Assembly (NCBI GenBank): GCA_024638655.1
Contig: JAHEJW010000001.1
Location: 18,043 to 82,042 of the forward strand
Length of the DNA stretch: 64,000 bases
Reading direction: 5' to 3'
Source of the DNA: a bacterium
GTDB lineage: Bacteria > Actinomycetota > Acidimicrobiia > Spongiisociales > ZC4RG35
The translations under genes and the position numbers were made by a program. This document shows, one piece after another, positions 8,793 through 57,644 of this stretch (its first letter is position 1; every line of letters begins with the position of its first letter). The notes below the pieces were generated by a model. That model had not been told where the DNA came from, ran no database searches, and worked only from the letters and a program-made list of their open reading frames with translations.

Positions 8793-8799
8793 GAAAGCC

Positions 8800-20278: not shown

Positions 20279-20332
20279 CTTAGGCGGACAGCCGGTCTTA
20301 AAGGGGTATCCAGGCCCCCTTCGGGCGGGTGA

Positions 20333-34531: not shown

Positions 34532-34535
34532 TCCT

Positions 34536-36014: not shown

Positions 36015-36016
36015 AA

Positions 36017-41563: not shown

Positions 41564-41642
41564 CGGAGTGGGAGAATAGGGAGCAGGGAATACACGGGCG
41601 AAACCAGCGGAGAGGCTTCATTTCGCTGCAAAAAGCGCCCTC

Positions 41643-43010
41643 TCACCGATCTACGTCGCCCATCACCGGGTCCATGGACGCGATGGTCGCCACCGTGTCC
41701 GCAACAAGGCTATCTGCCATGGCGATTGGCAGACCCTGGAGGTTGTAGAAAGAAGGGGCCCGGGTGTGCATGCGCCACGGCATCGGCCCACCGTCTGCCA
41801 CCAGGTAGCAGCCGAGTTCGCCGCGTGGGGACTCCACCGCCACATAGGTCTCGCCGGCCGGCACCTTGAAACCTTCGGTGAATAGCTTGAAGTGGTGAAT
41901 CAGCGCCTCCATCGATTCGTCGATGCGAGCTCTGGGTGGGGGTGTGATCTTGCGGTCATCGATCCTGTAGTTGCCTTTGGGCATGGAGTCCATCACCTGC
42001 TCGACGATCTTCAGTGACTCTTCGATCTCTTCGACCTTGACCCGATAGCGGTCATACACGTCACCCCGCTCGCCAAGCGGCACGTCGAACTCGTACTGAT
42101 CGATACCCGAGTAGGGAAAAACCTTCCTGATGTCCCAGTCCACGCCGCTAGCCCTTAGTGGGGGGCCGGTGATGCTGTAGGCGATGGCTTCCTCGGCCTG
42201 GATTATGCCTACGTCCCGGGTTCGAGAAAGCCAGACCGGGTTCTCTTTGAGCAGATCGTCGTACTCCTGAAGACGGACTGGCATCTCCTTGAGAATCGCC
42301 GCGACGTCGTCCTTCCATCCGGGAGGAAGATCAGCGGCCACGCCACCCGGGCGGATGTAATTGTGGTTCATTCGGAGCCCGGTGGCCTTCTCGAAGAACG
42401 CGAGGATGGCCTCCCTCTCCCGAAAACCGTAGATCATCATCGAGAGGGCGCCGATGTCCAGACCGTTGGTTGCCAGAGCGACCAGATGGGAGGAGATCCG
42501 GTTGAGCTCGGTCATCAGGATCCTGATCGCGGCGGCGCGCGGTGGGACCTCGACGCCGAGGAGCCGCTCCACGGCAAGTGAATAGGCGAGCTCTTCGTGG
42601 AGTGGAGAGAGGTAGTCCATCCGCGTCACGTTCGTGGGCCCCTGGGCGTAATTGAGCTGCTCGGCGGTCTTCTCCATTCCGGTATGGAGATACCCGATGA
42701 TCGGCCGAGTTCGCCTGATGATCTCCCCCTCGAGCTCGATCTGCAGACGAAGAACCCCGTGGGTGGATGGGTGCTGGGGACCCATGTTCACGATCATGCG
42801 CTCATCGTCGTCAGCGTCCTCGTCGAACACGTAGTCATCTTCGACCACTCGACCGAACTGGGCGGCCAGCCGGTCCTCAGACTCGTGTTCGGAGATCTCC
42901 TGGCGGCCCTCGTCCGTGGGTTGGAACTGAGGCTCCTCGGTGCCTGCCACCCACAAGTCGAAGGTGTCGGTCTCTCCGCCGGCCTGGTCTTGTGTGTTCT
43001 CGTCGCTCAT
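41643..43010 (-). CDS. nuoD: NADH-quinone oxidoreductase subunit D (second operon) with an acidic N-terminal extension
   Basis: NMGPQHPSTHGVLRL ... SMDPVMGDVDR. Start at ATG 43010 (MSDENTQDQ...), 2 nt after the nuoC stop. About 70 acidic residues precede the conserved core. Confidence 0.9.
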   Translation of the reverse strand: MSDENTQDQAGGETDTFDLWVAGTEEPQFQPTDEGRQEISEHESEDRLAAQFGRVVEDDYVFDEDADDDERMIVNMGPQHPSTHGVLRLQIELEGEIIRRTRPIIGYLHTGMEKTAEQLNYAQGPTNVTRMDYLSPLHEELAYSLAVERLLGVEVPPRAAAIRILMTELNRISSHLVALATNGLDIGALSMMIYGFREREAILAFFEKATGLRMNHNYIRPGGVAADLPPGWKDDVAAILKEMPVRLQEYDDLLKENPVWLSRTRDVGIIQAEEAIAYSITGPPLRASGVDWDIRKVFPYSGIDQYEFDVPLGERGDVYDRYRVKVEEIEESLKIVEQVMDSMPKGNYRIDDRKITPPPRARIDESMEALIHHFKLFTEGFKVPAGETYVAVESPRGELGCYLVADGGPMPWRMHTRAPSFYNLQGLPIAMADSLVADTVATIASMDPVMGDVDR

Positions 43011-43012
43011 CG

Positions 43013-43486
43013 TCAGCTCACCTGATGGGCCTGCTTGAACTGGACCGGAACCGACCCCACCCCGAAGTCCTTCCGAAGCGGGTGACCTTCCCAATCGTCG
43101 GGCATCAGGATGCGCGTCAGGTCGGGGTGCCCTTCGAACTCGATGCCAAACATGTCGTACACCTCGCGCTCGGCAAAGTTGGCCCCCGGCCAGAGCGGCG
43201 TGAGCGATGCGATCGTGGGATCCTCTCGCCCCACCGAGGTGATCATGCGTAGCCGGATTCTGTGTTGCATCGACACGAGATTGGCAACGACCTCGAATCG
43301 CTCAGGCCTCAGACGCATCCAGTCGACCGCGGTGACGTCACCACATATCTCGAACCCCGCCTCCTTGGCGGCTCCGGCGAAGGAGAACCAGGCATCGGCG
43401 GGAACCCGCGCCACATCCTGGCCGTGAGAGTCCTCCCAGACAACGGCTTCGAACTGTTCCTTGAGATCCTCGAGCACCGGGCTCAT
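43013..43486 (-). CDS. nuoC: NADH-quinone oxidoreductase subunit C (second operon)
   Basis: [32 protein letters not shown]. Start at ATG 43486, forming an ATGA overlap with the nuoB stop. The track ORF from 43846 runs through nuoB in another frame and is rejected. Confidence 0.85.
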
Positions 43487-43950
43487 CTGACTATCTCGCG
43501 TGTCATTATCTTGTCGTGCAGGGTGAGGATCCCGTGCATGAGGCTCTGCGGGCCGGGAGGGCAGCCAGGCACATAGATGTCGACCGGAACGATCTGGTCG
43601 ACCCCCTGGACCAGGGCGTAGTTGTTGAACATGCCACCGGTCGAAGCACATGCACCCATCGAGATGACCCATTTTGGATCGGGCATTTGGTCGTAGACCT
43701 GGCGCAAAACCGGGGCCATCTTCTGACTGACGCGACCCGCCACGATCATGAGGTCGGCCTGGCGGGGGGAGGCGCGGAAGACCTCCATCCCAAAACGCGC
43801 AAGGTCGTAGTGGGCAGCTCCGGTGGCCATCATTTCGATGGCACAACAGGCCAGACCGAACGTGGCCGGGAACATCGAACGGGTCCGCGCCCAGTTGGCG
43901 GCACGCTCGACCGTGGTCATCAGCAGATTACCTGGGGGAGTCGTCGCCAT
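43483..43950 (-). CDS. nuoB: NADH-quinone oxidoreductase subunit B (second operon)
   Basis: [16 protein letters not shown] and PGCPP N2-cluster cysteine motifs. 155 aa. Confidence 0.9.
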
Positions 43951-43954
43951 CTCT

Positions 43955-44362
43955 TCAGGCGGCCCGGCGCGTCTCGGGTGCGAGATAGCGGGAACGTCGC
44001 TTCACATTCCAGTCGAGGGCGCCCCGCTTCCACACGTAAACCAGCGTCTCCAGGACGAAGAAGGTGAAGATGAGCACAGCTGCCACGCCGTACCAGCCCA
44101 GCTCGGTCCAGATGGAGCCCCAAGCGAACAGGAAGATGATCTCGACGTCGAAGATCACGAACAACATCGCCACCAGGTAGAACTTCACCGGGAATCTCTG
44201 AACGGGCTCGACCTCAGGAACGATGCCGCACTCATACGGGTCGAGCTTCTCCGGGGTCGGGCGGTTCGGCCGGAAGAAGCGGGAAGCCAGCAGCGATACT
44301 GCCACGAAACCCGCAGCCAGTACCAACATGATGCCGATCGGCAGGTAGTCGGCGAGAGTCAC
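43955..44362 (-). CDS. nuoA: NADH-quinone oxidoreductase subunit A (second operon)
   Basis: 135 aa, three TM helices, YECG motif. First gene of the 14-gene operon. Confidence 0.85.
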
Positions 44363-45710: not shown

Positions 45711-46379
45711 TCAACCCAGCAGGTTGTCGGCCAGGTCGGCCAAGTCGGGAAAGACCAGCTCCGGTGGTGGATTGGCCATACCCCAGACCACGCCTCGTCT
45801 CTTGAGGAAGGCCGCTCGAGCCCCCACCGCCATGGCTCCGGCACAGTCCCAGTCGTGGGCCGCCACCAGCATCAGCTCGGCTATCGGGACGCCCAGTGAC
45901 TCGGCAACATGCTGATACGGAGCCGGGTTTGGCTTGAACTTCCCCACCTCCTCGACCGAGAAGACACGCTGGATGAACACGTGCAGTCCCGCATTCTCGA
46001 TCTGAGCGTTCGCCGCCTCGCTGCTCGAGTTGGTGAGAGCGACGAGCCGAAGATCTGCGTCGAATAGCCGCTCCATGGCGTTGTACACATCGGGATGAGG
46101 CGGGAGGCTCCGCATCGCCCCTACGATCTCCTGAGCGTCCTCGCCGCGCAGCCCCATACCTCTCTTGGCTGCAACGATGAGCAGCGCCTCGACACCTATC
46201 TCGTCGAAGGGTCGATAGGTGCCCAGCTCGTTGGCGACCAGGGATCCATGCAGCATGCGGGCGAACCACTCGCCGACGGGCGGGGCCGCACCAAAGCCCT
46301 TCTCCAATGCCTTGGAGATCGGCTCGAGACTCAGCAGGGTCTCGTTGACGTCGAAAACGAGTACAGGTTTGGCTGTCAT
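45711..46379 (-). CDS. HAD-superfamily hydrolase (haloacid dehalogenase type II-like)
   Basis: N-terminal FDVNETL (DxxxT-type nucleophile motif), a VALTNSS motif II-like block and a C-terminal HDWD motif. 4-nt overlap with the upstream menJ-like gene. Confidence 0.65.
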   Translation of the reverse strand: MTAKPVLVFDVNETLLSLEPISKALEKGFGAAPPVGEWFARMLHGSLVANELGTYRPFDEIGVEALLIVAAKRGMGLRGEDAQEIVGAMRSLPPHPDVYNAMERLFDADLRLVALTNSSSEAANAQIENAGLHVFIQRVFSVEEVGKFKPNPAPYQHVAESLGVPIAELMLVAAHDWDCAGAMAVGARAAFLKRRGVVWGMANPPPELVFPDLADLADNLLG

Positions 46380-47614
46380 GCCGTCGGCAGGGTACGCACC
46401 ATTGCGGCGAGGGCGTCATAAGCGCGCTCGCCGGCTTCCTTTTCATCCTCGTCCAGGAGGTTCGACATCACTTTCAGCGTCCACTCCATGAGCGGCCGAT
46501 TCCGCAGACCGGTATGAGCCAGCGTCCGCATGACGGACGGGTATCCGATCAGCTTCACGAAGATCCGGGCCATCTTGTAGTAGAGGCCGAACTCGTCCTC
46601 GAGGCGCTGGGGGTAGCGTCGCAGCAGCCCGGTGTCACCTGAAGCCACGGCCTCGCTCACATACCCGGCTGCGATACGACCCGTCTCGTATGCGTAGGAG
46701 ATGCCTTCCCCATTCCATGGGTTGATGGCACCGGCCGCGTCGCCGATAGTTATCCAGTTGTCCCCGACGAGTGGGCTCTTCGAGAAGGACATCGTGAGCT
46801 TCCCGCCGGTTGGCTTGCTGAGCTTTGTCTCTTCCCCGATGCCCCAGTGTTCGGGAGCGGTGGCGACATAGTCGTCCATCATGTTGGTGGTGTTCACGTG
46901 CTTCCATCGCTTGAACGTGGACAGCAGGCCCACCCCGACGTTTACCGTCCCATCGCCGAGGGGGAACACCCACCCGTACCCTGGCATCGTTGCCCCGCTC
47001 CTGTCCCTGAGATCCAGCTGGCTCTCTAGAAAGGGGTCTTTGGACATCGGAGAGGCGAAGTAGCCCCTCGCCGCCATCCCCATCGGATAGTCGCGTCGCC
47101 TCGACGAGCCAAGGTCGCGGCCGAAGCGATTCATCGAACCGTCTGCGATGACGGTCACGTCGGGAACCACCACTTCCTTTTCCCCTCCCGATGCCAGCTG
47201 GACAGAGGTGAGACGGCCGTCCTCGATCACGGGAGTCGCCGCGGTCTTCTCCAGGACTCGCACGCCCTCCTTCTCCGAGAGCCTCGCGACCTGCATGTCC
47301 AGGTCGCTCCTCCGAATGACCCCGCCCCAATTGGGAAAGCGGGAATGCACGGGCCAGGCCATCTCGATCATCAGATCGTCGCCGGCATAGGACCTCAGAC
47401 CAGTGATCCGATGGAACTCAGGAACATCGAAGTCGAAGCCCATATCGGTCAACTGGAGAATCGCACGTGGAGTGAGACCATCACCACAGGTCTTGTCCCT
47501 GGGATACTCCTTCTTCTCTGCCAGAGTCACGTCGTGACCCGCACGCGCCAGCCAGAAGGCGGCAGCTGCACCGGCGGGTCCGCCGCCGACTACGAGTACG
47601 GAGGGTGAAGGCAT
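46376..47614 (-). CDS. menJ: geranylgeranyl reductase-family flavoprotein, likely menaquinone side-chain reductase
   Basis: VLVVGGGPAGAAAAFWLARAG FAD-binding fold; PRDKTCGDGLTPRA, PGYGWVFPLGDGTVNVGVGLLST and IGDAAGAINPWNGEGISYAYETGR closely parallel mycobacterial MenJ (Rv0561c) as recalled from memory. Confidence 0.75.
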   Translation of the reverse strand: MPSPSVLVVGGGPAGAAAAFWLARAGHDVTLAEKKEYPRDKTCGDGLTPRAILQLTDMGFDFDVPEFHRITGLRSYAGDDLMIEMAWPVHSRFPNWGGVIRRSDLDMQVARLSEKEGVRVLEKTAATPVIEDGRLTSVQLASGGEKEVVVPDVTVIADGSMNRFGRDLGSSRRRDYPMGMAARGYFASPMSKDPFLESQLDLRDRSGATMPGYGWVFPLGDGTVNVGVGLLSTFKRWKHVNTTNMMDDYVATAPEHWGIGEETKLSKPTGGKLTMSFSKSPLVGDNWITIGDAAGAINPWNGEGISYAYETGRIAAGYVSEAVASGDTGLLRRYPQRLEDEFGLYYKMARIFVKLIGYPSVMRTLAHTGLRNRPLMEWTLKVMSNLLDEDEKEAGERAYDALAAMVRTLPTA

Positions 47615-48354: not shown

Positions 48355-48723
48355 CTAGCCCGCTACCGCTTCCTCCTGGGCTTCTTCAAATTGATGCAGT
48401 GCGACCAGGAAGACGAGGAAGAGCACCACGGAGACGAGCAGGAACGTGATTGGGATCACCCGGATCTCGAATGCGTTCAGCCCTTCGATGTTGTCTGGCT
48501 TGGGGCCCCGTGGGGCGTAGATGACGAACAGGAGCGACGTGATGCTCATCCACCCGAACGTGGCGGCACCGGTGACCAGGAAACCGAGCCGCTTGCCCAG
48601 ATTGGTGTAGTTGAACAGGTAGATCGACCCGTAGAAGAGGAGAACCGAGGCGATCGTCAGGATGATGCCTGTTACGAAGAGGTTGGCCGACAGAAGTGAC
48701 CTGAATAGCTCACGGAAGAACAT
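48355..48723 (-). CDS. small hypothetical membrane protein, last gene of the Rieske/cytochrome b operon
   Basis: 122 aa, 3-4 TM helices, 14-nt overlap with the diheme cytochrome c gene. Possible small accessory subunit. Confidence 0.4.
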   Translation of the reverse strand: MFFRELFRSLLSANLFVTGIILTIASVLLFYGSIYLFNYTNLGKRLGFLVTGAATFGWMSITSLLFVIYAPRGPKPDNIEGLNAFEIRVIPITFLLVSVVLFLVFLVALHQFEEAQEEAVAG

Positions 48724-50443
48724 TCTCTACCGTCCCTCCTTTCCCATCGAGATTTCCGCTCCGAAGGTAGGCGGCCACCAACTCGATGTCCTCCTGGGCG
48801 AGAATCGCCCCGAAGGCAGGCATGCGACCCGAGCCAAATCCGTTGAGGCCATAAGGCCGATTGGCCACCGAGCCGTTGATCAGGAAGTCCACGAGAAGGT
48901 CTTCGCCCAACTCAGCCGGGTCCTCGCCGAACTGAACCACGGGCCTCCCGTCCCAAAGAGCCGGGCCAAATCCGCCGGATCCCGCCTCCTGAGTGAAGGG
49001 GATGCCCGCCGAGAATCCGGCGGTGTGACACCGGGCGCAGTTCGCCAAGAAGAGCCCAACGGCTCGTTCGGCGTCATCTTCGGACACGTCTCTTCCGAGC
49101 TGGGCCGACATCGCTTCGGCAACTCCTGCGATGTCGATCTCCCAGGCGCGCCGCTCGGCCGCATTGACCAGGAAATCGAGCCCGGCTGATTCGCTTTCGA
49201 GGAGTTTCTCCTGGTTCTCGGCGGCGACCCCTGTGTTGATCGCCACGGTCTCCAGTCCACCCACCATCGCGGTCGCTGCGGCCAGGTCGGCCTGGCCGGC
49301 CGTCGACTCTGGGTTTGCCGGATCGAGCGAAACTGCGGTGAGCCGAGTCGGCACCGTGGCATCGACCGCTGCGGCAAATTGCCCGCTTATCGCGGACTCG
49401 GCCTGATCGGAGATCCCGTCTCCGTCGGTGTCCTCGCCTTCGGGAGGAGCATCCAGCTCCGCCTCGATCGCAGCGATGTTGAGAAGCAGGATCGGATCGG
49501 TCTCCGCGGCCGTCCTGAGCCGGTCGAGACCGGACTGCACCAAATCGGCGTCGGCGACAGCAGGATCCATAACAACCGGCTCGATCACCCGATAGAACTC
49601 GATCGCACTTTCGGAGATCTCCGACAACTCCGCTTCGGCGGCGTCCGACAAGCCGTCGGCGTCGGTATCGATGCCTTCGTCGGCAGAGTCGAGGATTTCG
49701 AGTGCGCGGTCGGCCAGTGGGACGATGAAGGCGGCGTTCCCGGGCGCCTGCTCGATCTCGGCGACGACCTGACGCTGATTGGCGATGGCCGTCTCCATCG
49801 TGGCGTCTGCATTCCCGAACCTCTGGAGTTGGATGTCGATCTCAGCTGCGGTCTTGTCGACCGCCTCCTGCTGGGGGATTTGGATGGTCTCGAGGTAGTT
49901 GACGACGTCTTCGATCTGCTTCTCGTTCATCGGGCCACCGCCATCGAGACCCCAGGCCGGCATCGGCGTGTTCCCTCGGCCATAGGTGAGCCAGTAGTTC
50001 ACTTCGTCTGCGTCATAGCGATAGAAGACGTCGTTGATGGCCGGCGCCGCCCAGGAGACTGTGACACCGGAACGCTTCTCCACGAACCTCGCCGAGCCAC
50101 CTACACCTAACGGCCCGTGGCAGCTGTAGCAGGCGAACTCCTCGACCAGGTGCTCGCCTCGCTCTACCGACGCTTCCTCGAACTCATCGACAAATCCTTC
50201 CTGCCGGTTCTGCTCACCCAAGAAGTAGAGGGGCAGGGAGATGGCGAGGAATGCCGAGGCTGCGATGGCCACCTTTTGGCCTGTCTCGAGCCGTCTGGTC
50301 TCCAATTCCTGGTCGTTGGTCCCGGGCTGGAGGTTCGGGGCCACCTCCTCTGAGCCGCGATTTCGCAAAGCCGACACCACGACGAGACCGAGCCACACGA
50401 TGCCGGCTACGACGGCGAGAACAGTGATGATGTTCGCGGTCAT
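48710..50443 (-). CDS. membrane-anchored diheme cytochrome c with a ~300-aa acidic insert between the heme domains
   Basis: N-terminal TM helix and two CxxCH motifs (CYSCH, CARCH), each followed by class-I-like cytochrome c sequence. The intervening region is Asp/Ala-rich with two DTDxDGxSD motifs. Confidence 0.75.
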   Translation of the reverse strand: MTANIITVLAVVAGIVWLGLVVVSALRNRGSEEVAPNLQPGTNDQELETRRLETGQKVAIAASAFLAISLPLYFLGEQNRQEGFVDEFEEASVERGEHLVEEFACYSCHGPLGVGGSARFVEKRSGVTVSWAAPAINDVFYRYDADEVNYWLTYGRGNTPMPAWGLDGGGPMNEKQIEDVVNYLETIQIPQQEAVDKTAAEIDIQLQRFGNADATMETAIANQRQVVAEIEQAPGNAAFIVPLADRALEILDSADEGIDTDADGLSDAAEAELSEISESAIEFYRVIEPVVMDPAVADADLVQSGLDRLRTAAETDPILLLNIAAIEAELDAPPEGEDTDGDGISDQAESAISGQFAAAVDATVPTRLTAVSLDPANPESTAGQADLAAATAMVGGLETVAINTGVAAENQEKLLESESAGLDFLVNAAERRAWEIDIAGVAEAMSAQLGRDVSEDDAERAVGLFLANCARCHTAGFSAGIPFTQEAGSGGFGPALWDGRPVVQFGEDPAELGEDLLVDFLINGSVANRPYGLNGFGSGRMPAFGAILAQEDIELVAAYLRSGNLDGKGGTVENVLP

Positions 50444-50449: not shown

Positions 50450-51331
50450 TCAGCCACCGATGCAGCTGGGGCCGCGGGGATAGCTGACGCTCAGCAGCTG
50501 GGATCGAGGGGTCTGGATGACCGTCCCCGTCTTGATGATGAAACGATCGCTCTGCACCTCGACCACGAAACGGTCGAGGTTGCGTGGAGCCGGGCCGGCG
50601 AAATACTCGCCGATGGAGCTGTATTTCGATCCGTGGCAGGGGCACTCGAAACCTTGGGACGTCGCACACCAGGGAACCCGGCACCCGAGGTGGACACACC
50701 GCTGAAAGAGAGCCATCAGACCGGCGGCTTCTACCCCGTCGCCTTCCATCGACTCGGGGACAACAGGGGACGGGACCACGTAGGCCCGAGCCTCCGGGAC
50801 GAAGACGGGGACAATCGAGCCATCGGCAGCAACCGTCTGGTTTTGAATGTCGGCGACCGTGCCGGCATCGACGTCGGTTCCGAAGCCTCCGCTCAGCTTG
50901 GGCCACATGAATGCAAGCGAGTTGATGCCCACCAGGCCCAGGAATGCGAAGAACGTCCCGCTCAACGCGCGGTTGAAGAACTGTCGCCGGGTGACACCGG
51001 ACTCCTCGGGTGTCACTTCGATGACCCGTTGCCGCTCTATCACCTGGACGCTTCCTCCAGCCGGGGCGAGCTCCTGGCTTGGCTCCGCTTCGACCTCTAC
51101 TTCGACTTCCGCAGGCTGGGGCTCGGAGACCGGCTCCGGCTCGGGCAAGGGCTCGACGCGCACGCCCTCCATCGACCGATCCGACCGACGAGTCTCCTCT
51201 GATACGCCGGCGGTGGGATCGGGGGCTGGCGCGTCCGCCCTCGAGCGCCGGAAAGCCACGGTGAATGCGCCAATCGCCCCCACGATTGCGAAGAGGGCAA
51301 CACCGATGAGAACCATGTTGGTGAAAGTCAT
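50450..51331 (-). CDS. Rieske [2Fe-2S] iron-sulfur protein
   Basis: Cluster boxes CVHLGCRVPW and CPCHGSKY, twin-arginine motif TRRQFF, N-terminal TM helix and an acidic Pro/Glu-rich linker. Confidence 0.85.
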   Translation of the reverse strand: MTFTNMVLIGVALFAIVGAIGAFTVAFRRSRADAPAPDPTAGVSEETRRSDRSMEGVRVEPLPEPEPVSEPQPAEVEVEVEAEPSQELAPAGGSVQVIERQRVIEVTPEESGVTRRQFFNRALSGTFFAFLGLVGINSLAFMWPKLSGGFGTDVDAGTVADIQNQTVAADGSIVPVFVPEARAYVVPSPVVPESMEGDGVEAAGLMALFQRCVHLGCRVPWCATSQGFECPCHGSKYSSIGEYFAGPAPRNLDRFVVEVQSDRFIIKTGTVIQTPRSQLLSVSYPRGPSCIGG

Positions 51332-52347
51332 TCGAAGTTCACCCAGTCCTTGAGGTCATCGAAGAAGACGCCGTCGCGCCACGGATAGGAGAAGTTGAAC
51401 CCCTGACCTCTGAAGAGCACACCGATGATCGTCAAGGTCGCAGATCCGGCCAGGAAGATCGAATAGAGCATGATGGCGAATTTGCGGTCAGTGGGACGGG
51501 TCGAGGGGTTCTTGTCGACGTAGGGGATCATCATGAACCCGATCAATCCGATGAAGAGTGGAACCATGACCCCTGCGACTTGGGGATCGAAGTAGCTCAG
51601 GAGCTCCTGGAGACCAAGGAAGTACCAGGGTGCCTTGGAGGGATTGGGCGTGGCATTGAAGTTGGCCGGCTCCAGCAGCGGGGAGTGGATCACGACCGAC
51701 ATGATGACGAGCAGCCCCGTGATCGCGAGCAACGCGCCGAACTCCATCAGCATCAGATGCGGCCACGTGTTCACTTTGTCGCTCGGCTCGGCTTTGACGT
51801 TCTGGATTGCCCGCGCCTTGACGACAGTGAGCAACCTCTGAGTCCTCACCCCTTCGGGCAGACCGGCCGGCGGAACGCTGGGTCTTGGGCTCACCAGACC
51901 GGCAACCTTGCCGTTTCCTCCACCACCATTGGAGGGAGCTACCGGGACAGTCTCTTCTTCGCCCATGGTGGCGACGGCCGCAGCAGGCTCCTCCGCCTCG
52001 GCGGCAGCCGCGTCTTCGTCCGGAATGACCGCGGCTGCGGGCGCCTCGAAAGGCTCCTCTTCCTCGGTGACGTCGGGCTCGATCGACTCCGGCTCATCGC
52101 CCGGTTCTGGGGTGGCCGGCTTGGTGATGGTCTCCACGTCGCCGGTCGCGACTGCCTCCGCCGCCTCTACGACCATCTCCTTTGGCTCGGGCTTGTCGCT
52201 CGCCTCTACCGGCGCCTCGATCTTGGGTGGCTCTACAGGCGGGCCTTCACCCTTCATCTCGGCCAGCACCTGCTCGACCGGCACACCCAACGCCTTGGCC
52301 TTGGCTTCTGCCGATCTCCTCAGGAGATCTTCTGGTATCTCAACCAT
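51328..52347 (-). CDS. cytochrome b C-terminal-domain protein (b6f subunit IV-like) with a ~200-aa hydrophilic N-terminal extension
   Basis: C-terminal three-TM domain with a PEWY-box equivalent (KAPWYFLGLQELL). AAGGAG RBS upstream of ATG 52347. The N-terminal extension is Ala/Glu/Pro-rich. Confidence 0.7.
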   Translation of the reverse strand: MVEIPEDLLRRSAEAKAKALGVPVEQVLAEMKGEGPPVEPPKIEAPVEASDKPEPKEMVVEAAEAVATGDVETITKPATPEPGDEPESIEPDVTEEEEPFEAPAAAVIPDEDAAAAEAEEPAAAVATMGEEETVPVAPSNGGGGNGKVAGLVSPRPSVPPAGLPEGVRTQRLLTVVKARAIQNVKAEPSDKVNTWPHLMLMEFGALLAITGLLVIMSVVIHSPLLEPANFNATPNPSKAPWYFLGLQELLSYFDPQVAGVMVPLFIGLIGFMMIPYVDKNPSTRPTDRKFAIMLYSIFLAGSATLTIIGVLFRGQGFNFSYPWRDGVFFDDLKDWVNFE

Positions 52348-52358: not shown

Positions 52359-53135
52359 TTACAGAGGCCCCGAGATGCCGCCGTCCTTGCGAACCCGCCA
52401 GAAGTGAACGGCGAGAAACACGACCAGGACGAATGGGAAGAAGAGGACATGCAGAACGTAGAAGCGGAGCAAGGTCGAACCGCTCACTTCAACTCCTGCG
52501 AGAAGTGCGAACTTGACCTGGTCACCGATCACGGGGGAAAACCCAGCCATGTTGGAACCTACCGTGACAGCCCAAAGCGCCAGCTGATCCCAGGGCAACA
52601 GATAGCCGGAGAAGGAGAGGAACAAAGTGAGGAAGAGGAGGATCACGCCGACGACCCAGTTGAACTCGCGTGGCGGCTTGTATGCACCGTGGTAGAAGAC
52701 GCGACTCATGTGGAGGAAGACTGACAGGACCATGAGGTGGGCGCCCCAACGATGCATGTTTCTCACCAGAGAGCCGAAGGCGACGTTGGTGGACAACGCC
52801 TCCATGTCCGCATAGGCGATTTCGGCAGTGGGCGTGTAATAGAACATCAGGAAGATGCCGGTGATCGTGAGCAGGATGAACAGGAAGAAACTCAGGCCGC
52901 CCAGACACAAGGTGTACGACAGGCGGACTCCGTGCCGCTTCACCTTCACCGGGTGGAGGTGGTACAGCACGTTGTTCATCACCACGTAGGAGCGGTTCCT
53001 CGGGCTGTCCGAGTAGCCCTGTTTGAACGGGGAGCCCGGTCGGAGTATCGATTCGACAACCTGTGAGCTCCAGAGCTTCTCGTTCGTTTCCTTGATTCGC
53101 TCCTTGAGGCTGGTTCTTCCGTTTCCGTTGGCCAT
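52359..53135 (-). CDS. cytochrome b6-like protein (N-terminal four-helix cytochrome b domain with heme ligands)
   Basis: [50 protein letters not shown] and paired His ligands (LH...13 residues...H) in helices B and D. 258 aa. Confidence 0.85.
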
Positions 53136-53152
53136 TGAGTGTCTCTTCTTCC

Positions 53153-53602
53153 CTACCAGCGCATACCGTAGGAGTAGCCGTTTTTGAAGTCACGTTGACC
53201 GGTGTCGAAATCCCATGGGCGAAGATCGAGGCCGAGCTCGGCAGCCTGCTCGGCCAACGAGCCCTCGAACTTGCCGAGGGTGATCACGTTCGTAGGGCAC
53301 CTGTCGATGCACAGCTGGCATCTGGTGCACTCGTCCTCATCGACGATGAAGAAGCCATAGTTCTGGGGGTCCTCGCCAGGATGGTCGACATTGACACCTT
53401 CTGAAATCGCGTCCAGCGAGAGGTAATGGATGCACTTCCACGGACAGATATCGACACAGCCCTCACAGAGAATGCACTCGGCCTGGTCGATGTGGAGGAA
53501 CTGCTTGGGGCGAAGCTTGTCCTTGAAGTAGTCGCCCTCGACAACGGCGAGCTGATAGTCGTCTCTGATCGGCGGGATCTCATCGATGACACCTTTGGGC
53601 AT
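53153..53602 (-). CDS. 2x[4Fe-4S] dicluster ferredoxin
   Basis: [12 protein letters not shown] and [12 protein letters not shown]. 149 aa. TGATG overlap with the upstream membrane-protein gene, and immediately precedes cytochrome b6. Confidence 0.8.
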
Positions 53603-54234
53603 CAGCGATCACCCCTCACCAGTGGCCTGCCGTATGGCGAGGTCTTCTCGACAGGCTGGGCGCCTGCCGGCCGACCTTCCTTCATTCTCTGGATCTGGAT
53701 GGCGAGCACCGCTGCAAACCCGAGTAGACCCAGGCTGTAACCCATCTGGATCGAATCTCTGATCACCGCGTAGCTGATCTCGACGGTGTTGCCCAAGACG
53801 AGGAAAGGAGGGATCGCAAGGGCGACGCGCTGGCTCGACCATTCGAGATCGGTTTGGGCGAAGTTGAGCCACTCGCTCGGGACCATGCCGAAATAGAACA
53901 CCAGAGCCGACCAGGCGATGACCGCGGCCGTCGTGGCCCGGGCCCAGGTCATCTTCTGGTTGAGCACCCAGAGAAATGTCGCGCCCACAATGGCGAAGGT
54001 GCTGGCCCCCAGGACGATCACGTAGCCAACCGCCTTCCACCACATTCCCCTGGGGAACCAGTTCAGCTGATCCACCACGACCGGTACCTCGACACCGTTC
54101 ACCAGCTCGGTCTCCGGCAAGCTGGACCAATGGATCCAGATGACTCCGATGATGAGGCCGATCAAGCCGAACAGGATCAGCAACGACCCGATGGCCTTGC
54201 GGCGGCTATCACTCAGTTCTGCGAGGCGATACAT
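53602..54234 (-). CDS. hypothetical 4-TM membrane protein, first gene of the Rieske/cytochrome b operon
   Basis: 210 aa, four predicted TM helices, no recognisable cofactor motif. Translationally coupled to the ferredoxin gene. Confidence 0.4.
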   Translation of the reverse strand: MYRLAELSDSRRKAIGSLLILFGLIGLIIGVIWIHWSSLPETELVNGVEVPVVVDQLNWFPRGMWWKAVGYVIVLGASTFAIVGATFLWVLNQKMTWARATTAAVIAWSALVFYFGMVPSEWLNFAQTDLEWSSQRVALAIPPFLVLGNTVEISYAVIRDSIQMGYSLGLLGFAAVLAIQIQRMKEGRPAGAQPVEKTSPYGRPLVRGDR

Positions 54235-54395
54235 CGTCGGCTCTCGTGCGCGTCCCTATAGCTGTCTGGGCGTTTGTACCACACGGTGAAGGGCCTTTGT
54301 GAACCCGAACCGCACGCTACTCGCCCAAATGTAGCGGCGAAGAGGAGTCACGAAGTCGTTATGCTCCCGCCGTCGCGCCATCTAGAGGTTGAGGC

Positions 54396-55835
54396 TTGGC
54401 TCAGACGCAAAGCTCGAACATCAGAACCCTCCTCGGGGGCGGCGCAGGCGGAGACCGCCTGGCCGCAACGCATTTTCTGGTAGGTGCCGCGTTTCTCGTC
54501 CTCGGTGGGGCTTTCTCTCTGCTGTCGCTTCTATCGCTCAGATTCGCCGGGCTCTTCCCACTCACTTATGGCCGTTTCGAGCCAATGGCGAATCTCAGCC
54601 TGATCATCGGATTCGCAGTCATCTCCCTCGTAGGCGGTGTCTACTACGTGCTCCCAAGACTCACCGGGACCGTCCTGTGGCGAGATGAGATCGCCGGCCT
54701 GGGACTCCTGGGGACGGCGGGCATCGTCGTTCTCGGTCTGGCCGCCACCGCCCTGGGCTTGGGCAGTGGCCGCGGCCCATTCGACCTCCCCTGGTGGCTG
54801 AGTGTTCCGTTGGCGCTCGTGCTCGCCATCCCGGCGGTCGTCACCCTCGGAACGGTTGCCAACCGTGAGGAGCAGCGGAGTTACGTGTCGATCTGGTTCG
54901 TTCTCGGCGGAACTGCGTGGCTTTTCCTGCTGACGCTGGCGTATCTGGTGGGGGATCTGCCTTTTGTCGGGTCACTCGCTGTTGCCTATGCCGACGTCTT
55001 CTACTCGGCGGGATTGGTCACGCTCGTCGTGTTCACCTTGGGCACGGGCCTCTTCTACTACACGGTGGTGAAGGAGCTCGACGTAGCCCTGGCCAGTCGT
55101 CAACTGGCGATGTTGGGGTTTTGGTCTCTCGGCTTCGCCGCCGTGTGGTGGGGGGTCGCCCAGGTCATGTTCGGGCCCGGCCCGACCTGGGTCTCCGGTG
55201 TCGTGGCGGCCCTCGGTCTTGCCTTCCCGATAGGGGCGCTGGCGAACGCAGCCAACGTGGCGCTCACCCTCGAGGGCTCCTGGGGACGGCTCGAGGCCAA
55301 ACCCGGAGTCACCGCAGGTGTGTACGGACTGTTTCTCGGCGTCGGGGTTGCTTTCCTCGCCGCCATGGGCGGGTTCCGCTCCATCGCCGCAGTGACATCG
55401 TTGACCGCGTTCTGGGAAGCCATCGAATACGCCGCAGTTCTGGGTGCCGGCGCCTTACTCGTGGCAGGCATCAGCTTCCAGGCGCTGCCCCGGTTGCTGG
55501 GCCGCGAGATCCATTCCCTGGATCGGGCCAGGTCCTTTGCCAGGCTCACCGTGATCGGCGCCGTTGGGGTACTGGTCTTCATGGCTGCCTCGGGCGTGGT
55601 CTCCGGCTATTCGTGGATCGCCGGATCGAACTCGGCCGCCTACATCGACGCCGGTGAGGGCTGGCAGGCCGGGGCCGGCGAGGTCCCCGACGCACTCCTC
55701 CTGATAGCGATCCTGTTCGCCTTCGTCACCTTCGCAGGACAACTTGCATACGCCTCCACGGTCTTCGGGACGGTCACCAGGGGCAAGGCCACCACCCAGG
55801 AGTTACTGGTGACGGGGATGACCGACGATGAGTGA
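54396..55835 (+). CDS. heme-copper oxidase subunit I (CcoN)-like 12-TM protein lacking the canonical histidine metal ligands
   Basis: 12 predicted TM helices. FEPMANLSLIIGFAVISLVGGVYYVLPRLTG parallels the CcoN MHG...GGFGNYLVP block, and AVWWGVAQVM parallels WWYGHNAV, with His replaced in both; only 2 His occur in 479 aa. TTG start with AGAGG upstream. Confidence 0.55.
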   Translation: MAQTQSSNIRTLLGGGAGGDRLAATHFLVGAAFLVLGGAFSLLSLLSLRFAGLFPLTYGRFEPMANLSLIIGFAVISLVGGVYYVLPRLTGTVLWRDEIAGLGLLGTAGIVVLGLAATALGLGSGRGPFDLPWWLSVPLALVLAIPAVVTLGTVANREEQRSYVSIWFVLGGTAWLFLLTLAYLVGDLPFVGSLAVAYADVFYSAGLVTLVVFTLGTGLFYYTVVKELDVALASRQLAMLGFWSLGFAAVWWGVAQVMFGPGPTWVSGVVAALGLAFPIGALANAANVALTLEGSWGRLEAKPGVTAGVYGLFLGVGVAFLAAMGGFRSIAAVTSLTAFWEAIEYAAVLGAGALLVAGISFQALPRLLGREIHSLDRARSFARLTVIGAVGVLVFMAASGVVSGYSWIAGSNSAAYIDAGEGWQAGAGEVPDALLLIAILFAFVTFAGQLAYASTVFGTVTRGKATTQELLVTGMTDDE

Positions 55836-56589
55836 TCAGCTGAGCGCAGCGGCCGCAGCCCTGGGCATACCCGAGTCGCTGGTCGAAAGGTCCGCGGCGG
55901 CGCGCGCCGCCGAGACCGGATCCAGCGCCGATGAGATCCTGACGGCATGGGCCGGAGGCGAAGCGGCCCCGACGCCGACCCGGCTGGCCGATGAGGCACC
56001 TGAGCCAGAAACCGCACCCGTCCCCGAGGCGCCCACAGAGGAGCCTGCGACCCCCGAGGTCGTGATCGAGACTCCCCCGCCCCCGGCAGCCAAACCTGCG
56101 GCGCCGGTACCCGCCGGGCCCTATAAGCCGCCGGTGCTGGTTGGAGCCAGAGACAACCCGATGATCGTCCTGGCTGCCGCGGTCGGCCTGTTCGCGGTCA
56201 TCTTCCTGGTCGGGTTCGTGGGGCCCTCGTTCCAGGGAGAGGCCCCTGGAACACGCACCTCGGAGATTCAGTACTCGGCACGGGCACTCGACGGCAGGGG
56301 CGTGTATGCCTCGCTGAATTGCGGCTCATGCCACACCCAGTTGGTGCGGCCGGTCATCGCCGATGTGGGCCTGGGGGCCGTCACGGTTCACGACACCAAT
56401 CAAGTGATCGGGACGCGCCGGTTCGGGCCAGACCTTTCCAATGTCGGGGCGCGACTCAGCGAATCCCAGCTCGAGGCCGTCGTCATTGGGCTCGGCGAAC
56501 ACCCCGCCTACGTTCTCTCGTCGGAGAACGTGAGTGCGCTAGTGGCCTATCTGGCGGAGTCGCAGACCGCGGAAGCAACGGGGGGCTGA
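55828..56589 (+). CDS. CcoO-like membrane-anchored monoheme cytochrome c
   Basis: TM anchor then GRGVYASLNCGSCHTQLVRP...RRFGPDLSNVGAR, matching the CcoO/FixO heme region including the GPDL..VG.R motif. Its start overlaps the upstream stop (ATGAGTGA). Confidence 0.6.
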   Translation: MSDQLSAAAAALGIPESLVERSAAARAAETGSSADEILTAWAGGEAAPTPTRLADEAPEPETAPVPEAPTEEPATPEVVIETPPPPAAKPAAPVPAGPYKPPVLVGARDNPMIVLAAAVGLFAVIFLVGFVGPSFQGEAPGTRTSEIQYSARALDGRGVYASLNCGSCHTQLVRPVIADVGLGAVTVHDTNQVIGTRRFGPDLSNVGARLSESQLEAVVIGLGEHPAYVLSSENVSALVAYLAESQTAEATGG

Positions 56590-57644
56590 TGAGTGAGTAT
56601 CTGAGCGCAGCGGCCGCAGCCATGGGTCTCCCCGAGGTTCTCGTCGAGCGCTCCGCCGAGGCGAGAGCCACCGAGACCGGAGCCACCGTCGACGAAGTCC
56701 TCCAGGCGTGGGCCGGTGGCGGTGAGATCAGCGCACCTCCCCCGAAACCGGCTGAAGAACCTGCTGGTGAGGCGGCCGCCGAAGAGACGGCGGCTCCCGA
56801 AGAGACCCCGGAACCACAGGCAGCAGCAGCTCCAGTCGCCGCAACGGTGGAAGTCGCAGAGCCGTCGGCCACTGCCCGGGTTCCAACACGCGCTCCGGTC
56901 CCAGAAACGGTCAACTCTGCAGCAGCGGCGCGTCTTCCTGAGGTCGTGACCGTTCCGACTGCCGGGATCAGGGAAAAGACCAGCTTCGCCATCCCCAAGT
57001 GGCTGACCGCCGTTCTTCTGGTTGCCCCGCTCTTCGCATTGTTTGCACTGGGCGGATCGGCGACAGGTGAATGTGGTGCGGCAACTGAGTTGAGGGCGGA
57101 CGTCGTCACCGGCGAAATCGTCAACTGCGATGGCACCGAGTTCACCGGTCAGGCAGTCGGCGGAGGGGGGACCAACTTCATCGCACTCGGCGAAAGCATC
57201 TACCTGGGCGGCGAGGTCACCGGCGTCAACTGTGCCGGTTGCCATGGTCCGGCTGGACAGGGAGCGGGAGCATTCCCTTCGATGACCGGGGTCAACAACA
57301 CGTTTGGTGCATGCACGGACCACATCGAATGGGTGGTCTTGGGTACGGGTGGCTTCCAGGCGGCTGGCAGGAGTACCTACGGCGACACCGGGAAACAGGT
57401 TGGTGCCGCCGGCAACATGCCCGGGTTCTCGAGCAATCTCAGTGCGGAGCAGATTGCTGCCGTCGTCGCCTTCGAGCGCGCCAGGTTCGGTGGAGGCGAC
57501 GCCGATGCAGTGCTCACCGATTGTGGCCTCGTCGAAGAGGCGGGCACCGAGGGAGAGCCCGGAGAAGAGGGTGGTGAAGGCACCGGTGGTGAGGGCACCG
57601 GTGGTGAGGGCGGCACCGAGGCCTCAGCCGGCTCTTCCGGCTGA
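56589..57644 (+). CDS. membrane-anchored class I cytochrome c (CcoP-like partner) with a Gly/Glu-rich C-terminal tail
   Basis: ATGA overlap with the upstream gene. One CxxCH (CAGCHGP) in a class-I cytochrome c context (GNMPGF, LSAEQIAAVVAF). The C-terminal GEGTGGEGTGG tail is encoded by a 15-nt tandem repeat. The 441-aa track ORF from 56319 is an upstream over-extension. Confidence 0.6.
   Translation: MSEYLSAAAAAMGLPEVLVERSAEARATETGATVDEVLQAWAGGGEISAPPPKPAEEPAGEAAAEETAAPEETPEPQAAAAPVAATVEVAEPSATARVPTRAPVPETVNSAAAARLPEVVTVPTAGIREKTSFAIPKWLTAVLLVAPLFALFALGGSATGECGAATELRADVVTGEIVNCDGTEFTGQAVGGGGTNFIALGESIYLGGEVTGVNCAGCHGPAGQGAGAFPSMTGVNNTFGACTDHIEWVVLGTGGFQAAGRSTYGDTGKQVGAAGNMPGFSSNLSAEQIAAVVAFERARFGGGDADAVLTDCGLVEEAGTEGEPGEEGGEGTGGEGTGGEGGTEASAGSSG

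Follow-up and report, generated by a model that had tools for sequence, protein, structure and literature searches.

The 64-kb window (the whole stretch of DNA analysed, 64,000 nucleotides) contains three overlapping plus-strand open reading frames, whose products are here called N′, O′ and P′ and which an earlier note had recognised as a cluster in the order N-O-P. Head-to-head with this cluster lies an operon for a Rieske/cytochrome b complex, also pointed out in that note and borne out by Pfam and NCBIfam matches. The features are as follows.

54396–55835, plus strand: N′, 479 aa with 12 TM helices, homologous to subunit I of the heme-copper oxidases (HCO) and closest to CcoN
55828–56589, plus strand: O′, a FixO/CcoO-like membrane-anchored monoheme cytochrome c
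56589–57644, plus strand: P′, a membrane-anchored monoheme class-I cytochrome c with CAGCH and an invariant Met277-Pro
54235–54395, strand not applicable: divergent intergenic (promoter) region, 161 bp
53602–54234, minus strand: first gene of the divergent operon, a 210-aa protein with about four TM helices
53153–53602, minus strand: 2x[4Fe-4S] ferredoxin subunit, 149 aa (Pfam Fer4 families)
52359–53135, minus strand: cytochrome b6, 258 aa (Pfam Cytochrome_B, 157 bits)
51328–52347, minus strand: subunit-IV-like protein, the C-terminal part of cytochrome b (Pfam Cytochrom_B_C)
50450–51331, minus strand: Rieske iron-sulfur protein (Pfam Rieske; NCBIfam PetC-like)
48710–50443, minus strand: diheme cytochrome c, 577 aa, with CYSCH and CARCH (Pfam Cytochrome_CBB3 twice, TSP3_bac)
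48355–48723, minus strand: last gene of the Rieske/b6 operon, a 122-aa protein with about three TM helices
47642–48283, plus strand: Rex-type redox-sensing regulator flanking the Rieske/b6 operon

The gene for N′ starts at a TTG codon with GAGG just before it. Its description in the earlier note as a CcoN-like protein with 12 TM helices is upheld. Pfam COX1 (PF00115) matches it with 69.3 bits against a threshold of 34.8, which places it in the superfamily, and its best PDB sequence matches by phmmer are the CcoN chains 9g6b_A and 3mk7_A (E ~1e-19). The AF2 model (pLDDT 81, pTM 0.86) has 12 TM helices and aligns in Foldseek with the CcoN of 3mk7 at TM scores of 0.84–0.87 (E 1e-16), while the second-best structural match, NorB, is weaker (E 1e-8, TM 0.73–0.74). 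Profile and structure searches, which the note had named as a place where its reading might fail, thus find a significant likeness to HCO subunit I, with CcoN closest. At 99.9 bits N′ lies far below the cut-off of the TIGR00780 ccoN equivalog (583.15), and no dedicated Pfam or NCBIfam model was found for the His-less N′ family.

The ligand columns of N′ were mapped by alignment onto P. stutzeri CcoN, together with 19 canonical CcoN representatives that carry His at all six columns. As the note had claimed, every heme and copper ligand is gone. The bis-His ligands of low-spin heme b are replaced (H60 by A65, a residue nearly invariant across the family, and H347 by Y345), as are the proximal His of high-spin heme b3 (H345 by I343), the three CuB ligands (H207 by A205, H257 by A255 and H258 by Q256; numbering as cited in PMC3578206) and the cross-linked active-site Tyr (Y251 by A249). 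The conserved W203 of CcoN falls in a four-residue deletion. N′ has just the two His that the note had counted, H26 and H373, both outside the ligand columns. One detail of the note did not survive alignment: WWGVAQVM had been paired with WWYGHNAV, which is the wrong block, since it aligns with W-A-G-P-H257-H258-L-H; the H207 block of CcoN is DVFYSAGLV in N′, and the conclusion of ligand loss is unaffected by the correction. The pairwise alignment with CcoN also places A238, G241, L314 and L321 of N′ at S240, H243, Y317 and E323, which we take to be upper K-channel positions, and by this alignment they too are lost. Assignment of N′ to cNOR NorB, which needs His for hemes b and b3 and three His plus Glu for FeB, was rejected, the same His columns being empty.

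The note had said that His or alternative ligands at the heme and CuB positions would count against it; neither N′ nor 81 family members have a His or a conserved alternative ligand there. Of the His residues, H26 alone is invariant among these 81 sequences; it sits in TM1, at the cytoplasmic end, and there is no invariant Met, Cys or Lys. The Tyr pairs Y83/Y84 and Y221/Y222 are invariant in the N′ family and are found in canonical CcoN too; E344 and Y345, on the former heme-ligand helix, are near-invariant in the close family. Across the wider His-less clades the former ligand columns are free to vary, with A, S, G, T, F, V, R, D and other residues. Conservation in N′ peaks in the TM7-loop-TM8 core (residues 235–291, mean column identity 86–91%), the region that once held CuB, and not only at the periplasmic surface. 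In this clade a polar cluster (Q256, N284, N287, E341, E344 and Y345) occupies the site of the former metal centre; the wider His-less clades do not conserve these residues. Taken at the level of sequence and fold, these comparisons support the view that N′ is catalytically empty.

A survey for orthologous His-less copies, suggested in the earlier note, recovered 416 homologues of N′. N′ is carried by at least 97 GTDB species, one locus each, all of them Acidimicrobiia/Actinomycetota MAGs, and the reading frame of N is intact in 80 of 80 GTDB loci, with 105 columns of N′ at least 97% conserved. The N and O genes overlap, as do O and P. Values of dN/dS are 0.064 for N, 0.175 for O and 0.115 for P, with 0.05–0.10 for neighbouring genes; by this measure N′ is under purifying selection and is not a pseudogene. 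No prior description of a His-less cbb3-like module was found in the literature, and we know of no HCO subunit I for which cofactor loss with structural retention has been described.

O′ begins with a cytoplasmic N-terminal motif (55834–55971), followed by a Pro/Ala/Glu-rich linker, one TM helix (a hydrophobic stretch at about residues 111–133, N-terminal of the heme domain) and the heme domain, with CGSCH at residue 165 invariant in the family; its first 8 nt overlap the end of the N′ gene. It belongs to the CcoO/FixO family by Pfam FixO (PF02433; 35.1 bits, threshold 29.6) and matches 3mk7_B in the PDB (E 2.7e-7), and it falls well short of the TIGR00781 equivalog (37.5 bits, cut-off 200.65). 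The note had described the CxxCH sites of O and P as intact, and each protein does retain one, CGSCH and CAGCH respectively. The O′ heme is, however, not intact in the canonical sense by its predicted ligands, because the distal Met position (S-x-M-P) is His225 in 73 of 73 sequences of this clade, whereas the alignment retains M-P in canonical O domains and in fused His-less O domains. The O′ heme of this clade is therefore probably His/His-ligated. P′ starts at an ATG sharing one base with the O′ stop codon, carries the same N-terminal motif as O′ (56589–56723) and has four extra Cys, all invariant; its heme is read as His/Met. Pfam matches it to Cytochrom_C and Cytochrome_CBB3, and its PDB matches, to cytochrome c4 and CcoP, are weak. 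The note's assignment of the third gene as ccoP-like had to be given up: P′ has a single CxxCH, scores 26.5 bits against the TIGR00782 cut-off of 179.95, and gives no match to the FixP_N domain in a Pfam search.

The motif at the cytoplasmic N-termini of O′ and P′ is novel and recurs in subunit IV of the divergent operon, which has a long cytoplasmic N-terminal extension carrying it (52258–52338). An HMM built from the O and P N-termini only matches subunit IV with E 8.9e-8. In the distant loci L089 and L081 subunit IV bears two to four tandem copies; the fusion clade, whose O lacks a free N-terminus, has four.

The divergent operon encodes a Rieske/b6-type complex by its split cytochrome b, four heme His, heme ci Cys, PxWY-type motif ('APWYF' in subunit IV) and Rieske motifs. 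Cytochrome b6 matches NCBIfam ExtP with 296.8 bits (cut-off 290) and PRK03735 cytochrome b6 with 212 bits, and across 70 loci all its His are invariant, as is Cys77 in TLCLGG, at the heme ci position; the Rieske protein keeps CVHLGC and CPCH unchanged in 57 loci. The ferredoxin subunit has two CxxCxxCxxxCP motifs and about 90% identity across loci, and the diheme cytochrome c has two TSP3-like DxDxDGxSD repeats between its heme domains. The 210-aa protein has no significant Pfam or NCBIfam match; it is present at 77 of 80 loci (tblastn), its His35 is conserved in 78 of 78 sequences, and a same-position protein occurs in the distant loci L081, L086 and L089. The 122-aa protein likewise has no match in Pfam or NCBIfam; syntenic copies occur at 55 loci as well as at L081, L086 and L089. 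The Rex gene is syntenic in 52 loci, and its orthologues in L081 and L089 have Put_DNA-bind_N and CoA_binding domains. The intergenic region contains GTTATGCTCCCGCCGTC at 54358–54374, unique in the window, and its core GGGAGCATA or the reverse complement occurs in 70 of 78 orthologous intergenic regions; a simple scan gave no sigma-70 promoter there, and a search for a Rex operator was negative. Near the module are a nuo operon and a geranylgeranyl-reductase-like gene. The 64-kb window holds no terminal oxidase gene, and neither ccoQ nor ccoGHIS genes are in view.

N′ is paired with the divergent Rieske/b6/ferredoxin operon in every locus long enough to show it. The pairing, which N-O fusion forms also show, extends to L081 (31% identity), L089 (34%) and L086 (27%), whose outer flanks differ; the distant His-less homologue L084 has no Rieske/b6 genes in view. 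The His-less protein never occurs without a paired or fused one-electron carrier, which is a cytochrome c or a cupredoxin. Natural N-O fusions account for 26 of 65 His-less cluster representatives and occur in both canonical and His-less lineages, and in the ligand-less lineage fusion and diversification continued after the ligands were lost. In one relative (P0169) FixO is replaced by a cupredoxin with His-Cys-His-Met type-1 copper ligands, and in a second a cupredoxin domain is fused to the His-less protein. In three relatives (L083, L091 and L092) the His-less gene lies between ResB-CcsA and a genuine ctaC-ctaD pair (COX1, 203–285 bits), directly upstream of ctaC-ctaD; two of the three have a fused cupredoxin domain of the blue-copper type, and L083 has cytochrome b6 and ferredoxin genes upstream as well. 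A-type CtaD is common among MAGs of Acidimicrobiia and Acidimicrobiales, and caa3 oxidases have been reported alongside 'cbb3' in such MAGs (PMC8357290).

The reading that we favour, and consider moderately probable, is that the module is a relic of a cbb3 oxidase, now free of cofactors, and that it anchors one-electron carriers in the periplasm between a b6c-type complex and a separate terminal oxidase. The module would descend from a C-family (cbb3-type) HCO that lost its cofactors. Because N′ keeps the subunit I fold but should be unable to bind heme b, heme b3 or CuB, it would reduce neither O2 nor NO and may instead serve as a membrane scaffold holding the O′ and P′ cytochromes on the periplasmic face. 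The divergent menaquinol-oxidising complex (Rieske protein, cytochrome b6, subunit IV, diheme cytochrome c and 2[4Fe-4S] ferredoxin) would work with this carrier platform, and single electrons would be relayed from it to an A-type terminal oxidase encoded elsewhere in the genome. The components would probably form one supercomplex, tethered on the cytoplasmic side by the repeat motif of O′, P′ and subunit IV. We infer that N′O′P′ physically joins the b6c complex, which way electrons pass through O′ and P′, and which acceptor takes them. The electron-transfer scaffold had been put forward in the earlier note, and it gains comparative support from the N-O fusions, the cupredoxin swap and fusion, the ctaC-ctaD adjacency and the Rieske/b6 linkage down to 27% identity. 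Five points count against it. The 64-kb window has no gene for a terminal oxidase, and no CtaD match could be tied to a contig carrying N′; His as the distal O′ ligand predicts a lower-potential heme, an odd relay towards an oxidase; an extra carrier platform is not obviously needed, since a diheme cytochrome c is already part of the b6 operon; the high conservation of the TM7-loop-TM8 core hints at a function inside N′; and L084 lacks visible Rieske/b6 genes. This cbb3-like gene set, kept in a widespread and uncultured group of Acidimicrobiia, should not be read as an oxygen-reducing enzyme.

That core is the starting point for a different reading, in which N′ is a non-redox module, a supernumerary subunit of the Rieske/b6/ferredoxin complex whose TM7-TM8 core has been repurposed, for instance to conduct ions or protons, to bind lipid or quinone, or to help in assembly and stability, with the O′/P′ hemes secondary. 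TM7-P4-TM8 is indeed the most conserved region, a polar cluster sits in this clade where the metal centre was, and linkage to the b6 operon is strict and accompanied by the motif in common with subunit IV. We nevertheless regard this as unlikely, because the wider His-less clades do not keep the polar residues, the upper part of the K-channel has lost its residues, and the constant pairing or fusion with a one-electron carrier argues that the carrier is the point. It is quite unlikely, too, that the module is an electron-input or bifurcation device, in which low-potential O′/P′ hemes feed or draw electrons at the b6-type complex and the ferredoxin subunit links the n-side hemes (bH, ci) to cytoplasmic low-potential carriers for reverse or bifurcating flow. 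The invariant His at the O′ distal position suggests a low-potential heme, the ferredoxin gene and Cys77 are invariant in the b6 operon, and Rex, the nuo operon and the geranylgeranyl-reductase-like gene are nearby; yet fused-clade relatives keep a His/Met O heme, the three relatives beside ctaCD point to an oxidase branch, and no gene of the cluster is a candidate for a periplasmic donor enzyme.

By analogy with cbb3-dependent signalling in some proteobacteria, a dead oxidase might instead act as a redox sensor reporting the state of the c-type pool, which would fit the adjacent rex gene and the conservation of a module that has lost catalysis. This is very unlikely, since the cluster has no signalling domain or partner kinase, the divergent promoter has no Rex operator, and the cupredoxin and ctaCD variants resemble respiratory-chain hardware. 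Persisting O2 or NO reduction through unconventional non-His ligands, to which the retained fold and near-invariant Y345 and E344 might lend themselves, seems extremely improbable: none of the seven catalytic residues survives, most having given way to Ala, the former ligand positions drift freely, no Met, Cys or Lys is conserved, H26, the sole invariant His, is placed where TM1 meets the cytoplasm, and W203 is deleted. That a protein stripped of every catalytic residue is a decaying relic without function is scarcely credible, given a dN/dS of 0.064, the same as in housekeeping neighbours, the intact frames and conserved columns, and the fusions and diversification that followed ligand loss.

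The module, for which we continue to favour the carrier scaffold, resembles CcoNOP (P. stutzeri, 3mk7) in its 12-TM subunit I fold, its N-O-(cytochrome c) gene order and its FixO-type single-TM O. It differs in that N′ lacks the six His, the cross-linked Tyr, W203 and the upper K-channel residues, O′ has His for the distal Met and extends by about 100 aa on the cytoplasmic side, the third subunit has one heme and is not orthologous to CcoP, and ccoQ or ccoGHIS genes are not in view near the module. Like N′, cNOR (NorBC) and the new NOR families of the HCO superfamily (eNOR, bNOR, sNOR, gNOR and nNOR; bioRxiv 10.1101/2021.10.15.464467) are HCO derivatives without the active-site Tyr and without O2 reduction. 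Most of these keep the heme ligands and the metal site, however, and gNOR replaces only one active-site His, whereas in N′ all ligands are gone. In the bc1-cbb3 supercomplexes of R. capsulatus (6xkw) and P. aeruginosa (8smr), and in actinobacterial bcc-aa3 with diheme QcrC (7qho, 7q21), a Rieske/cytochrome b complex is likewise wired to an HCO-fold partner by membrane-anchored c-type hemes, and soluble cytochrome c is not needed. In the window, by contrast, the HCO-fold partner appears catalytically empty, complex III is of the b6 type, with a split cytochrome b, a heme ci Cys and a ferredoxin subunit, and a physical association between the two is a proposal.

Cofactor-less relic domains occur elsewhere in bioenergetics, as in the molybdopterin-free formate-dehydrogenase-like domain of NuoG/Nqo3 and in ActB of alternative complex III. 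There too a module that once bound a cofactor and was catalytic survives as a structural component of an electron-transfer complex, although fold and superfamily are other than those of HCO subunit I. Cytochrome cy, Bacillus c550/c551 and the halocyanin-type anchored cupredoxins are membrane-anchored carriers, each a tethered periplasmic one-electron domain that shuttles between complex III and an oxidase, much as we propose for O′ and P′. Their anchor is a single helix or a lipid, whereas here it would be a whole 12-TM ex-oxidase subunit.

The 479-aa CcoN-like protein N is encoded, in a window of ~62% GC, at the head of three overlapping genes, the other two specifying a FixO/CcoO-like cytochrome c (O) and a monoheme cytochrome c (P):

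54396-55835, plus strand: N, 479 aa, TTG start codon with GAGG before it
55828-56589, plus strand: O, overlapping N by 8 nt
56589-57644, plus strand: P, its ATG having one base in common with the stop codon of O

By fold and by Pfam, N is a member of the heme-copper oxidase (HCO) superfamily, as the earlier note had proposed from its resemblance to subunit I. It matches Pfam COX1 at 69.3 bits, above the 34.8 threshold, and its best PDB sequence matches are the cbb3 CcoN chains 9g6b_A and 3mk7_A (E ~1e-19). An AF2 model that drew on 20 members of the family (pLDDT 81, pTM 0.86) contains twelve long helices and superposes on 3mk7 CcoN with a TM score of 0.84-0.87 and an E value of 1e-16, the matches to NorB (1e-8) and to A- and B-type subunit I (1e-7) being weaker. 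The top curated model for N is TIGR00780 ccoN, at 99.9 bits far under the equivalog cut-off of 583, and N, O and P fall below the equivalog thresholds set for CcoN, CcoO and CcoP, respectively. O lies above the Pfam FixO threshold (35.1 vs 29.6 bits) and can be aligned to 3mk7_B; P is a monoheme class-I cytochrome c with weak similarity to CcoP (26.5 bits vs a cut-off of 179.95). The periplasmic part of P also contains invariant cysteines outside CxxCH (C162, C180, C242 and C312), which probably form disulfides or a small metal site, and residues 160-180 give a weak, sub-threshold match to a LysW-like zinc ribbon.

Heme and copper ligands have been regarded as one of the features that define the HCO superfamily, and N lacks every defining catalytic feature of CcoN. 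A HMMER alignment to Pseudomonas stutzeri CcoN, with CuB ligands numbered as quoted in PMC3578206, places the following residues of N at the catalytic positions:

CcoN H60: N A65
CcoN H207: N A205
CcoN Y251: N A249
CcoN H257: N A255
CcoN H258: N Q256
CcoN H345: N I343
CcoN H347: N Y345

CcoN W203 falls inside a four-residue deletion in N. In the same alignment S240, H243, Y317 and E323, which we take to be upper K-channel residues of cbb3, are replaced by A, G, L and L. When N was aligned by MAFFT with 98 full-length cluster representatives, all six ligand columns were occupied by His in the 19 canonical CcoN sequences and none of them in N. The earlier note had counted only two His in the whole protein and had considered every heme and copper ligand lost, and both points hold: the two are H26 and H373; the sole His invariant among 81 close family members is H26, which lies where TM1 ends on the cytoplasmic side; Met, Cys and Lys have no invariant position in this set; and the invariant Tyr pairs Y83/84 and Y221/222 are also found in canonical CcoN. 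Across the wider His-less clades the seven catalytic positions are free to vary, which speaks against ligands of another kind. The motif blocks cited in that note do reflect ligand loss, but its pairing of WWGVAQVM with the block WWYGHNAV needs correction, WWGVAQVM being the H257/H258 block and DVFYSAGLV the H207 block. At the level of sequence and fold, N is shown to be unable to bind heme b, heme b3 or CuB, and because these cannot bind, reduction of O2 or NO by N would be impossible.

His-less N is not a decaying relic. N has a dN/dS of 0.064 when compared with L090, a relative of 89% identity; the values are 0.175 and 0.115 for O and P, respectively, and 0.05-0.10 for flanking housekeeping genes in the same comparison. 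At least 97% conservation is seen at 105 columns of N, and its best-conserved stretch is TM7-loop-TM8 (residues 235-291), the former CuB region. The clade is large, ancient and under selection. A word-indexed search returned 416 homologues of N. When 1.84 billion cluster representatives at 50% identity were searched exhaustively with HMMER, 531 matched at E<=1e-3. The survey for His-less orthologues envisaged in the earlier note finds them widely: a GTDB scan confirmed 97 species-level loci with N, the 80 examined all being MAGs (no isolates), mostly labelled Acidimicrobiia or Actinomycetota, and among the 98 full-length sequences in the best 150 of the 531 matches, the six His are all absent from 65, partly retained (one to five) in 14 and complete in 19. 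A neighbor-joining tree, which is indicative only, groups the His-less sequences together and away from canonical CcoN. Taxon names on His-less representatives, where given, are Acidimicrobiia or Actinomycetota; a set of 30 cluster representatives carried either MAG names (Acidimicrobiia) or no name, and likewise included no isolates. By architecture, the 65 His-less representatives comprise 38 split N proteins, 26 N-O fusions and a single fusion of N to cupredoxin; P0246, also fused to cupredoxin, is counted in the one-to-five class. Within the wider family, P0172 (L085 6074-8206) keeps three heme His, has lost all CuB ligands and lies in an unrelated genomic context. Such partial-loss lineages are few and may represent stages in, or separate cases of, the degeneration of C-family oxidases; P0250, P0244, P0179 and P0205 retain one or two ligands, and some lineages occur in non-actinobacterial contexts (ExbBD neighbours in L093).

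The head-to-head Rieske/cytochrome b complex described in the earlier note is confirmed as a minus-strand operon divergent from N, hereafter the b6 operon, which lies in the following surroundings, with its genes in operon order:

53602-54234, minus strand: 210-aa membrane protein
52359-53602, minus strand: dedicated 2x[4Fe-4S] ferredoxin gene (~90% identity across species) and cytochrome b6 gene
minus strand: subunit-IV-like gene
minus strand: Rieske gene
48710-50443, minus strand: 577-aa diheme cytochrome c
minus strand: 122-aa membrane protein
plus strand, after the b6 operon: rex
46376-47614: geranylgeranyl-reductase-like FAD protein, with rex between a full-looking nuo operon and the b6 operon
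~29655-44000, minus strand: second complex-I-type cluster, resembling a full nuo operon by ORF sizes and strand only
13495-22270, minus strand: glycogen/alpha-glucan cluster (1091-aa TreS/alpha-amylase-like protein, GlgE, GH57 protein, GlgB), unrelated to N
1-9468, minus strand: partial complex-I-type cluster with NuoD-, H-, L- and M-like genes at the left window edge

The complete arrangement of N, b6 operon and rex occurs in every one of the 80 loci that is long enough to show it. It recurs with different outer flanks at the distant locus L089 (34% identity) and at L081, an N-O fusion of 31% identity, and also at L086, an N-O fusion of 27% identity with ResA-ResB-CcsA inserted. The nuo operon and the FAD protein are usual neighbours of N loci, and this neighbourhood is seen again in L081, L084 and L086. 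All His of cytochrome b6 are invariant, as is Cys77 at the heme ci position, and the protein scores 296.8 against the NCBIfam ExtP model (cut-off 290). The presence of a ferredoxin subunit on the b6 complex suggests n-side electron exchange with the cytoplasm. In the 577-aa diheme protein the two heme domains are separated by a long acidic insert, with two thrombospondin-type-3-like DxDxDGxSD repeats of Ca-binding type (residues 259 and 338). Neither the 210-aa nor the 122-aa membrane protein has a significant Pfam or NCBIfam match. The 210-aa protein and N are both otherwise poor in His and each has an invariant one, His35 (78/78) and His26 (81/81), respectively; His26 is common in other His-less clades as well, and canonical CcoN has an aromatic residue there. 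In the divergent promoter, no Rex operator (TTGTGAAN4TTCACAA, <=3 mismatches) was found, the two matches in the window being at chance level. A simple sigma-70 scan of the promoter likewise gave no match. The sequence GTTATGCTCCCGCCGTC, at 54358-54374 and thus 22-38 nt before the N start codon, occurs once in the window and includes a -10-like hexamer, TATGCT; its core 9-mer is found in 70/78 orthologous intergenic regions, and a further intergenic motif, GTTT[CG]TACCACA-like, recurs in ~57 loci.

A second, independent link between N-O-P and the b6 operon is a previously undescribed N-terminal motif of ~45 residues, common to O and P (consensus MSDLLAAAAAALGIPEALVQRSAAARAAETGASVDEVLAAWAGGEA), which has no Pfam match. 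When the window was searched with an HMM made from O and P alone, the sole further match was to the subunit IV N-terminus (E 8.9e-8). Copies are encoded as follows:

55834-55971, plus strand: O
56589-56723, plus strand: P
52258-52338, minus strand: subunit IV
L081 4733-5956, minus strand: subunit IV of that locus, four tandem copies

Fusion to N leaves O of L081 without a free N-terminus; in L089, two copies are found on subunit IV. The motif is presumably cytoplasmic, provided that the three proteins bearing it have the N-in topology known from cbb3 and b6f. The neighbouring b6-type complex, with a 2[4Fe-4S] subunit of its own and the common tether motif, merits study by itself.

Natural variants place distant relatives of N between ResB-CcsA and a genuine ctaC-ctaD pair:

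L083 5020-9022: N-cupredoxin fusion (P0169) beside ctaC-ctaD
L091 1789-5521: N without a fused carrier beside ctaC-ctaD
L092 2903-7324: N-cupredoxin fusion beside ctaC-ctaD

In the His-less P0169, which with P0246 makes up the cupredoxin-fused members of this set, the FixO domain gives way to a cupredoxin at the C-terminus, whose type-1 copper site is complete (H639, C681, H684, M687); the P0169 gene is flanked by ResA-ResB-CcsA and by ctaC (COX2 with cytochrome c) and ctaD (COX1, 249 bits), with divergent ferredoxin and cytochrome b6 genes upstream. L092 has the same layout, the fusion being followed by ctaC and ctaD (285 bits), and in L091 it is ctaC that has an extra cupredoxin domain. Metagenome scans for more relatives of the cupredoxin or ctaCD-adjacent type found none. 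Exchange of a c-type heme for blue copper beside a real oxidase and a b6 complex fits what is expected if the 12-TM body serves as an anchor or scaffold for one-electron carriers.

We propose that N positions O and P at the periplasmic face, an arrangement supported by gene overlap, natural fusions and analogy with 3mk7, and we infer that the resulting platform would partner a menaquinol-oxidising b6c-type complex and pass electrons to a distinct oxidase, probably of A type. All of these plausibly form one supercomplex, tethered through the common cytoplasmic motif. Not everything fits a relay of this kind. The b6 operon has a diheme c of its own, the most conserved part of N is its core and not its surfaces alone, the 64-kb window contains no oxidase gene, and co-occurrence of N with an A-type oxidase is seen at class level only. 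In addition, O of the split-O clade, and of that clade only, has an invariant His225 (73/73) at the position of the canonical distal Met (S-x-M-P), which canonical and fused O domains keep; because His replaces Met here, the heme c of O is predicted to be bis-His and probably of lower potential. Two alternatives, both less likely, gain from His225, the separate diheme c, the conserved core and the lack of an oxidase in the window: that the core of N has acquired a new non-redox role, and that N-O-P takes part in low-potential input or bifurcation linked to the ferredoxin subunit. The carrier platform is the reading that we prefer. A wider joint reading, in our judgement rather unlikely, would unite N-O-P, the Rieske/b6/ferredoxin complex and an A-type oxidase in one obligate Acidimicrobiia supercomplex, with a cofactor-free cbb3 fossil as hub, the ~45-aa repeat motif as cytoplasmic clasp, and a TM7-TM8 core serving a new non-His function (ion path, lipid or quinone site, or a salt-bridge lock replacing the metal centre). 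If true, this would be a supercomplex architecture of a new kind, and its hub the first pseudo-enzyme among HCO subunit I proteins.

NCBI and JGI name the His-less proteins 'cbb3-type cytochrome c oxidase subunit I'. Because close relatives of a genuine ctaD-type fragment (strong COX1 match beside ctaC) in Actinomycetota MAGs bear the same name, it is generic for PF00115 matches and carries no evidence of a high-affinity oxidase. Calls of 'cbb3' in Acidimicrobiia MAGs have been published (PMC8357290), and the proteins behind them may differ from the His-less family; such calls may feed the inference of high-affinity, microaerobic respiration in these MAGs, an inference that is likely wrong where it rests on the His-less N family. 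The practical consequence is for MAG-based metagenomics, and the matter also concerns bioenergetics. A paper of 2013 termed one replacement near CuB 'unprecedented' (PMC3578206). Full-text literature searches turned up no account of His-less CcoN homologues, and there is no dedicated Pfam or NCBIfam (June 2026) model for them. A clade without any heme or copper ligand shows that a new use can be found for the oxidase scaffold itself, and offers a concrete picture, open to testing, in which a supercomplex partner without catalysis survives as an electron-carrier platform; the variants with cytochrome c or cupredoxin fusions and ctaCD adjacency already chart a path from oxidase partner to carrier platform. 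In a plausible history, an ancestral b6c-cbb3 supercomplex would have seen an A-type oxidase take over, the cbb3 partner being retained without cofactors for docking and wiring. Such a history would be similar to that of the relic domains, likewise devoid of cofactors, in NuoG and ActB, and N-O-P would act as do cytochrome cy and QcrC, the membrane-anchored carriers within the III-IV supercomplex.
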